Below are positions 22,238 to 23,919 of a DNA stretch of 29,196 bases, piece by piece (position 1 is the stretch's first letter; every line of letters begins with the position of its first letter). The stretch covers positions 1 through 29,196 of the forward strand of contig CBDAQI010000006.1 of NCBI GenBank assembly GCA_965198945.1, read 5' to 3'. The notes beneath the pieces are model-generated. The model worked only from the letters and a program-made list of their open reading frames with translations. It was not told the DNA's origin and made no database searches. This DNA comes from Thermodesulfobacteriota bacterium (GTDB lineage Bacteria; Desulfobacterota_D; UBA1144; Nemesobacterales; Mycalebacteriaceae). A program made the position numbers and the translations under genes.

Positions 22238-23506
22238 TTAATCCGTGTTTTGAAACTCTCTCAAGACCTTAATAAACTCGTCTCCATATTTATCAAGTTT
22301 CGTGCGGCCCACACCGGGAATAAAAGACATTTGCAGCAAATCAGCCGGTTTTTCATTTGCCATTGCGGCAAGGGTTGAATCATGAAAAATCATATACGGC
22401 GGAAGGTCCTGTTCCCTTGCAAGGCGCAAACGCAATTCCCGCAGCTTTTCAAAAATAGGCATGTCCGCCTCACCAACGGCTTTTGAGACTCGTAACCGCT
22501 TATACTCCCTTCTCCGTTTTCCCGGCTTCTGCCTGTCCGGCATTTTACGGAAAAACATATTTCCCTTTCCGCGCATCAAAGTGTTTCCCCTCTCCGTAAG
22601 GCGGAGACCTCCGTAGCCGTCTGATTTCGGAGTAAGCGCGCCCGCGGCGACAAGCTGTCTGATAACCGAACGCCACTGCGCGGGGTCAAGTTCAGTTCCC
22701 GCTCCGTAAACCTTCAGACTGTCGTGCCGGAAATTCCTTATCCTTTCCGTATCTTTTCCGAGCAGCACATCTATAAGGTAGCCCACACCGAACCTCTTGC
22801 CCGTGCGGTAAACACACGAAAGAGCCTTCTGTGCGGCGACGGTTCCGTCCCATGTTTCGGTGGGAGCGAGGCAGTTATCGCAGTTGCCGCACCGGGTTTC
22901 ATATTCTTCACCAAAATATACGAGCAGCGATTTTCTGCGACATCCAGAAGTTTCACAAAGCCCCAGCAGGGAGTTGATTTTTGAACGTTCAGTCCTTTTG
23001 AACTCTTCATCGGCTTCAGACTTATCAACCATTTGAATCAGCATCACCAAATCCTGCAGCCCGTAACTCATCCAGGCGCTCGCGGGCAGACCGTCACGTC
23101 CGGCGCGGCCGGTTTCCTGATAATATGACTCAATGCTTCCCGGCAGATTCAAGTGCGCCACAAAGCGGACATCGGGTTTGTCAATACCCATTCCGAAGGC
23201 TACGGTCGCCACTACAATGACCGCTTCTTCCCGCAGAAAGCGGTTGTGGGTTTTCATCCTTTCCTCACCGGTCATTCCCGCGTGGTAAGAAATTGCGGCA
23301 AGCCCTTTTGAGGAAAGCCAGGCGGCGGTTTTTTCCACGCCTTTGCGAGACATACAGTAAACAATCCCACTGTCGCCACTGTGTTTTTCATTGATAAAAT
23401 CAAGCAGAGCCCCCCTCGCCTCGCCGGACTCGTTTATGTTTATAGTGTAGAAAATGTTGGGTCGGTCGTAACCAGAAACATATTCTTCCGCTGAGCCCAG
23501 AACCAA
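22238..23506 (-). pseudogene. recQ: RecQ helicase, 5'-truncated at the bacterial/eukaryotic junction
   Basis: DRPNI, VATVAFGMGIDKPDVRFV, YYQETGRAGRDG, Zn site CRR...CGNCDNC, RQC and HRDC present; motifs I-III missing; TAG at 23507-23509. Confidence 0.92.
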
Positions 23507-23919
23507 CTACAACTAGTGCTACTGCTACTACTACTAATGTATAAACAAAATGGTAATAGGCTCATTAATTTTTGAAAACTCTCATTTCAAACGCAAATAT
23601 AGTAATTCCAAAATTTTCTAAAAAAGTATTAAGGTGAATTTACCAGAGGTAGGGTGGCCATACGTCCCGTTTTGGCCGGGACAGTCCCGTTTTTAGGCCT
23701 TGGTCCCGGTGTCCCGCCCAGTTTACCACTTTGTCCCGGAATTTTTGATTAAAAATTTGCTTTTATTAATACAGTATGTCAACGATACACAAACGAGCCA
23801 TTTGTTATACTATATAACTTGAAAGGCACAAATTCTTAGCTTTATGGCGTCACAGACCGAGTGCTACACTACAGATACGTTAGCATTACTTTACGCAGGT
23901 GCAGGATGGTTAAAGCAGC

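Follow-up and report, generated by a model that had tools for sequence, protein, structure and literature searches.

Does a contig that passes from bacterial into animal DNA within a single gene record the insertion of a bacterial segment in an animal chromosome, or has it been put together wrongly? The question is raised by contig C6, whose 29,196 b are the whole of the stretch of DNA analysed here (the window). It is one of the 14 contigs of a bacterial genome of 1,387,051 b, for which marker genes give a completeness of 95.28% and a contamination of 0.01%. A sequence-only reading had seen a sharp bacterium-to-animal switch in recQ at about 23506, and we place the break one base from there, at 23507|23508, where identity with the genome's own recQ continuation stops. 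The evidence set out below indicates that this joint is very probably artefactual and that it probably arose by way of a chimeric long read. The bacterial side and the joint comprise the following features, X3 being one of the public sequencing runs considered further below.

1 to 23507, no strand: ordinary chromosomal DNA of a 1.39-Mb bacterium (from ORF cover, Pfam, gene order and X3 contigs)
22238 to 23506, minus strand: 3' part of recQ, the C-terminal 422 codons (Helicase_C, RecQ_Zn_bind, RQC and HRDC by Pfam)
23355 to 23507, no strand: stretch common to C6 and contig C3 of the same genome (153 b, 100% identical to the first 153 b of C3)
23506 to 23509, no strand: the joint, very probably false (the fit to the window ends at 23507 in X3 record 19 and begins at 23506 in X3 record 20)
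23506 to 23536, no strand: imperfect (ACT/CTA)n microsatellite, start of the host DNA (TRF: period 3, 10.3 copies, 71% matches, score 34)

Open reading frames of at least 100 aa cover 0.87 of positions 1-23507, where the GC content is 0.39-0.54, and the Pfam families found there, ClpB among them, form a set typical of bacteria. GlnA (488 aa), the P-II protein (112 aa), homoserine dehydrogenase (474 aa) and RNase III (228 aa) are full-length by Pfam, in agreement with the earlier statement that glnA, glnB, hom and rnc are intact. The glnB gene (18958-19297) has two copies in the genome, 100% identical, of which the second lies on C11. Named relatives of GlnA are labelled 'Thermodesulfobacteriota bacterium' (89% and 78%) and 'Candidatus Dadabacteria bacterium' (76-77%). 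A small genome is normal for the genus, several members of which have single-contig genomes of 1.2-1.5 Mb. For marine pelagic Dadabacteria, one report gives genomes of about 1.22 Mb (PMC8115339).

By Pfam, the recQ frame of the window contains no DEAD domain, and it ends on a TAG supplied by the first tail bases past 23507. Searching the genome itself with window positions 23300-23700 found the match to C3. The window and C3 part ways after 23507, the first 13 bases beyond being different, and a minus-strand ORF of 263 aa on C3, open at the contig end, carries a DEAD helicase domain (E = 9.1e-26). The gene that follows this 5' half of recQ on C3 encodes hydantoinase B. A scripted join of C6 1-23507 to C3 from position 154 onward produced a single open frame of 655 codons, in which the first ATG is codon 36, giving a protein of about 620 aa. 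Within this one reading frame, the DEAD domain contributed by C3 is accompanied by Helicase_C, RecQ_Zn_bind, RQC and HRDC from the window. As the joined frame is open and the DEAD half lies on C3, the bacterium's recQ is whole and C6 in reality continues on C3; the gene is intact in the organism and is cut only by the false continuation of the contig. The sequence-only reading had suggested that an intact recQ be looked for in the symbiont bin. The missing half is indeed present there, on C3, and X3 record 19 also continues past 23507. The RecQ of E. coli is 609 aa long, and the joined gene has the same domain set as E. coli-type bacterial RecQ, with nothing unusual about it.

Relatives of the bacterium carry the same gene in one piece. 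In four of five same-genus genomes, recQ is an open frame of 617-623 aa with 74-79% identity to the window part; the fifth, which is 96% complete, gave no match with the window's recQ part as query. In the closed genomes G002 and G001, compared by tblastx, the matches to C3 and those to the end of C6 abut inside one uninterrupted recQ. On the C3 side they include the recQ 5' half (76%), hydantoinase B (76-79%) and genes beyond, and on the C6 side the recQ 3' half (74-82%), glnA (87-89%), rnc and hom. The gene order from hom to recQ is common to C6 and both closed genomes. The recQ matches are displaced by 6 b, apparently an in-frame length difference of two codons, and the tail of the window had no tblastx match in either genome. 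When genome contigs were searched with the C-terminal part of RecQ, 80 loci came back, of which the best was only 57% identical (Gammaproteobacteria and others); none belonged to the window's genus, and that search gave no synteny.

The tail beyond the break is 5,689 b long, with a GC content of 0.37-0.45. Only 0.23 of it lies in ORFs of at least 100 aa, a share lower than in any of 233 windows of that size taken from the 13 remaining contigs (median 0.849, minimum 0.345). By tetranucleotide distance from the genome mean, positions 25001-29196 rank fifth among 545 windows. The tail is divided into the following features.

23508 to 23649, no strand: single-copy host flank (X3 record 20, depth 37.8)
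23650 to 26253, plus strand: decayed hAT-type DNA transposon of about 2.6 kb (Dimer_Tnp_hAT, PF05699, E = 1.2e-7)
26254 to 29196, no strand: further host repeats (word depth, repeat search)

At the very start of the tail, the (CTA)n-like microsatellite that had been described beside the break is present, but it is a weak one, as its match rate and TRF score show. C6 contains no N letters, as had been stated, and neither a tRNA nor an Rfam family was detected when the window was scanned for an att-like target. Pieces of hAT transposase are spread over several frames between 24220 and 26016, the last of them carrying the dimerisation domain, and there is no intact transposase frame in the element. 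Its inverted ends (23648-23661 and 26242-26255) are 14 nt long and 93% complementary. The direct repeat ACCAGAGG(T) borders the element on either side, which fits the target duplication of 8 b that is a hallmark of hAT elements. A 183-aa piece of the transposase matched 29 longer proteins. The best matches are 89-91% identical, with 61-70 member sequences each, and lie on contigs of 0.69-0.93 Mb; named matches come from Ciona intestinalis (73%), Phallusia mammillata (60%), a spider (55%) and an aphid (57%). The element shares with the animal hAT superfamily the C-terminal dimerisation domain, short terminal inverted repeats, a flanking direct repeat of 8-9 b and a multi-copy state; it differs in that the window's copy is decayed, with its transposase split across frames.

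Beyond the transposon, an extremely abundant family occupies approximately 26280-26920, with word depths of 4.4e5-7.2e5 in the bin 26350-26923. The copies of an exact direct repeat of 175 b are 263 b apart (26707-26881 and 26970-27144), and a 136-b inverted repeat pairs 28554-28689 with 28881-29016. Pfam gave nothing above threshold for the tail ORFs outside the hAT element. In the host runs, word depth ranges from hundreds to 7e5 across the tail and from 650 to 4,000 over the hAT element. ORF cover, the hAT element and word depth all mark the tail as non-bacterial, which supports the earlier recognition of eukaryotic repeats past the break. The tail repeats have no copy in 1-23507 or in the rest of the genome, the four blastn rows all being matches of the tail to itself, and the bacterial part is accordingly free of host transposons, as had been noted. 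To judge by these features, the tail is nuclear DNA of an animal and resembles that of ascidians most closely. The window consists of normal chromosome of a free or host-associated bacterium with a small genome (1-23507) followed by nuclear DNA of an ascidian-like host (23508-29196).

Both sides of the joint can be followed in independent data. Parts of 21500-25500 occur in five public runs, of which four (X2-X5) come from one study and organism. The share of sampled words was 0.77 in X2, 0.76 in X3, 0.33 in X4 and 0.28 in X5, and 0.09 in X1, which is from another organism and study. X2, X3, X4 and X1 were compared with 12000-29196, all as Logan contigs, in which rare variants are dropped and spanning reads are uncountable; the depths given here are contig word depths and a rough measure. 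In X3, record 19 (19,267 b, depth 14.9) matches 19268-23507 with its letters 1-4240 at 0 differences, and then continues for 15,027 b past 23507 unlike the window's tail. Its length suggests that this continuation equals C3. If so, the record would end at about 15,180 of C3, about 157 b into the 23S rRNA gene (15023-18050 by Rfam), and that gene is a natural stopping place for a k-mer contig. Record 20 of the same run (5,469 b, depth 37.8) matches 23506-23650 with its letters 5309-5453, and the 5,308 b to the left of this host flank are other DNA, not recQ. The two partners overlap at the joint by at most 2 b (23506-23507). No contig bridging 23507|23508 was found among the 32 listed pieces from X2, X3, X4 and X1, although a short bridging piece may lie among 51,839 further pieces and absence from contigs is weak evidence. 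Run X1 contains a copy of the hAT family, about 96-97% identical, whose loose ends fall at 23650 and 26254; it has essentially no bacterial part and is uninformative on the joint.

Depth separates the two sides in each of the three remaining runs.

X2: bacterial side 2-7, least repeated tail pieces 41.3, ratio about 0.08
X3: bacterial side 13.7-25.7, least repeated tail pieces 31.9-37.8, ratio about 0.4
X4: bacterial side 0-1.9, least repeated tail pieces 32.5-72, ratio below 0.05

The coverage step that had been proposed as a check on the junction is thus present in X2, X3 and X4 (host side ~41, 32-38 and 32-72), and the ratio of bacterium to host varies more than 5-fold among runs of one host species. 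In X3, depth climbs to 23.5-25.7 over the two-copy glnB, and so depth tracks copy number in the bacterial part. A chromosomal insert, fixed or heterozygous, should give a depth ratio of 1 or 0.5 in every carrier. The alternative offered by the sequence-only reading, in which at least 23 kb from a bacterium had been inserted in an invertebrate genome, is not supported by these ratios or by the host locus of X3, which lacks the insert. In its most explicit form this would be a very recent germline insertion at the (CTA)n beside the hAT element of an ascidian-like chromosome, with the free bacterium present in the same sample. A base-clean joint without N speaks for such an event, and an intact recQ on C3 is compatible with a bacterium living beside its inserted copy. 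X3, however, shows an uninterrupted host locus at the full host depth of 37.8, and the bacterial depth is 0.05-0.4 of that of the host and depends on the run. Even X2, which has the host allele of the window, gives 2-4 on the bacterial side against about 40, although at so low a bacterial depth the evidence from the X2 sample is thin. The allele in question is at position 23559, which is G in the window and X2 and A in X3 and X4; this difference is a host polymorphism, and it suggests that the tail of the window came from the host of the X2 sample. An exact search of JGI metagenome contigs with a 40-b word across the joint gave 0 matches, which counts at most weakly against an insertion as the host sample is probably outside that collection. 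The absence of any host repeat within the 23.5 kb also argues against it.

A germline insertion could further draw on the damage to at least two genes on the bacterial side, and these lesions had been read as fitting a transfer.

9146 to 10066, minus strand: gene of an ATP-dependent DNA ligase, carrying an in-frame TGA (9398-9400) as well as a 66-b insert (Pfam, sequence comparison)
15433 to 15870, plus strand: aldehyde dehydrogenase remnant, the last ~100 residues (Aldedh profile positions 362-460 of 461)

The aldehyde dehydrogenase remnant, which has an intact DUF779 gene downstream, is also present in X3 record 17 (9,708 b) at a depth of 13.7. This is the bacterial depth, that of the host being about 32-41, and over 12000-18987 the record has 1 other letter and 0 gaps. 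The lesion belongs to the bacterial population and is therefore a property of the bacterium, not of residence in a host; the one lesion that the run data cover thus lies in contigs of bacterial depth, contrary to the earlier interpretation. Within 12000-23507, the X3 contigs of bacterial depth (13.7-14.9) have 1 difference from the window in 11.2 kb and 0 gaps, and this near-identity also argues against an inserted copy. In the ligase gene, the 66-b insert consists of a 36-b duplication and 31 b that are also found in C1. The run comparison began at 12000, downstream of this gene, and its lesion is either the bacterial genome's own or a sequence error; in both cases it does not speak for residence in a host chromosome. 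With depth, host locus and lesion all considered, we hold a germline insertion to be highly improbable.

Could a real integration have been confined to somatic tissue, or to a minority of host cells or individuals, and have been caught by chance in one read? Contig data are blind to rare variants, and an overlap of two bases would suit ligation in vitro and end-joining in vivo alike. To our knowledge, integrations are undocumented for this pairing of bacterium and host. A single molecule of this sort would be indistinguishable from a library chimera, and in ligation libraries chimeras formed in vitro are reported at frequencies that reach the per-cent level (PMC8495745). The same report gives putative chimeric reads as 0.02% to 3.17% across long-read libraries, with higher frequencies in ligation-based ones, and states that chimeric reads may hamper the validation of lateral gene transfer, ligation-based PacBio and ONT libraries being affected (PMC8495745). 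We consider a rare integration of this kind to have only a slight chance of being correct. The reverse event, an uptake of host DNA by the bacterium with insertion into the recQ of a fraction of the bacterial population, has nothing in its favour beyond the joint itself. The tail pieces have the depth of the host rather than that of the bacterium, the tail consists of host repeats present in hundreds to 1e5 copies, and the X3 contig of bacterial depth continues unlike the tail; the probability of the reverse event is negligible. All readings with a real integration, taken together, are very unlikely. The same is to be said of a true in vivo integration of more than 23 kb of Dadabacteria-like DNA in an ascidian-like chromosome, at a microsatellite beside a hAT element, that would be too recent or too rare (somatic, or confined to one haplotype of few cells) for contig data to reveal, which we would be surprised to see established. 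A full-length recQ, a depth step and no bridging contig among those listed are what is found at the contig level, and each of these had been expected of a joint that is not a transfer. A mis-join or chimeric read, which had been called the commoner cause of such junctions, is supported here by the separate native continuations of the two partners, their unequal depths and the intact recQ of the genome.

How the artefact arose can be addressed from the assembly itself. Overlaps between contig ends in this genome are unequal (153, 183 and 381 b), and C8 is a unit of about 3,972 b read approximately 3.4 times, with indels between the copies. Together these point to an overlap-based long-read assembly, and we infer that the assembly is of the long-read type. 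A fixed-k de Bruijn overlap was considered as the source of the 153 b and rejected on account of the unequal overlaps. We propose that one bacterial and one host fragment were ligated to each other during library preparation, before adapter ligation. The resulting chimeric long molecule or read would then have been used to extend a bacterial contig of low coverage, and the true continuation would have been left to begin a new contig, C3, 153 b before the break. The tail, at 5,689 b, is short enough for one long read. The assembler might instead have made the join without any chimeric molecule, in a graph path or at the consensus step; this would be one form of the artefact and would leave the overall conclusion unchanged. 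Branching is seen at further contig ends too: positions 1-114 of C1 diverge from C2 after the 381-b overlap, and a 183-b end is common to C9 and C10. Against this, the partners have just 2 b in common at the joint and the repeats of the tail occur nowhere else in the bin, so that no shared repeat is available for a graph crossing. We therefore regard an assembler mis-join as rather unlikely and infer a chimeric read rather than a graph error, with a single chimeric molecule as the most economical and most likely cause.

Taken at face value, C6 would record a huge and fresh transfer from a bacterium into a chordate relative. That would be a striking claim, and recognising the artefact averts a false call of lateral gene transfer. 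The joint has no biological importance of its own, and its value is one of curation: 5.7 kb of host contamination is exposed in a bin that scores 0.01% contamination by marker genes, so that 23508-29196 should be trimmed, and C6 and C3 can be joined through recQ.

Two known classes of junction provide the comparison. Wolbachia inserts in the chromosomes of insects and nematodes are recent transfers from endosymbiont to host, and C6 resembles them in that large and nearly undecayed bacterial DNA stands beside host repeats and the joint interrupts a bacterial gene. Accepted transfers have joints that recur in many reads and individuals, and inserts at host-like depth. C6 differs from Wolbachia-type inserts in both respects at the contig level, that is, in recurrence of the joint and in host-like depth: its bacterial depth varies by run and is well below that of the host, and the host locus lacks the insert. 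Chimeric contigs in holobiont and metagenome assemblies have, as here, a base-sharp joint with no shared repeat at a contig end. C6 also shares with this class an appended piece short enough for a single read, native continuations on both sides and unequal depths, seen here at the level of contigs. The joint of C6 is very probably one of the familiar chimeric contig ends of holobiont assemblies and not a product of biology.

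Two genes in the bacterial part of the window show defects:

9146-10066, minus strand: ATP-dependent DNA ligase gene with two defects, an in-frame TGA and a 66-b insert
15433-15870, plus strand: aldehyde dehydrogenase remnant, of which the last ~100 residues alone are left

The N-terminus of the ligase gene product resembles a signal peptide. The in-frame TGA lies at 9398-9400, and the insert is made up of a 36-b duplication (9209-9244 and 9275-9310) together with 31 b (9245-9275) that match positions 54056-54086 of C1, another contig of the same bacterial genome, exactly. The defective gene could be a pseudogene, a case of recoding or an assembly error. 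Directly downstream of the aldehyde dehydrogenase remnant is an intact DUF779 gene, and the remnant sequence was also found in a contig with bacterial depth from the public sequencing run X3.

Exact duplicates of window sequence were observed on two other contigs of the genome. Within a 601-aa ORF that has no Pfam family, 1,491 b (609-2099) recur at C5 54314-55804, and 340 b of glnB (18958-19297) recur at C11 50966-51305; the X3 depth approximately doubles across this stretch of glnB. A repeated organisation was also seen in C8 (13,402 b), which consists of ~3.4 copies of a ~3,972-b unit with indels between copies, and which could be either a tandem array or a small circular replicon whose sequence was traversed repeatedly.

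Contig C3, which continues the window through recQ, carries an rRNA gene at its end:

C3 (locus L013) 15023-18050, minus strand: complete 23S rRNA gene

C3 runs on for 79 b past the 5' end of this gene and then stops, and the assembly therefore breaks within the rRNA operon. Branching was also observed at other contig ends of the genome (C1/C2 and C9/C10). On the reverse strand, C1 115-495 is identical to the first 381 b of C2, and past this overlap the last 114 b of C1 diverge, with 28 of 114 positions alike. An identical 183 b terminates both C9 and C10.

Two repeats stand out in the ascidian-like host tail:

26280-26920: extremely abundant host repeat
23650-26253: hAT family element, also present in run X1

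The summed word depth of the first reaches 4.4e5-7.2e5 in three runs, where the single-copy depth is ~35-70; internal deletion variants are numerous, and the repeat has no match in Pfam. The hAT family is also carried by X1, a public run from a different organism and study, at ~96-97% identity (43 differing letters in 1,307 b), and the loose ends of the X1 match fall exactly at the element ends, 23650 and 26254. One transposon family is therefore common to two host species.
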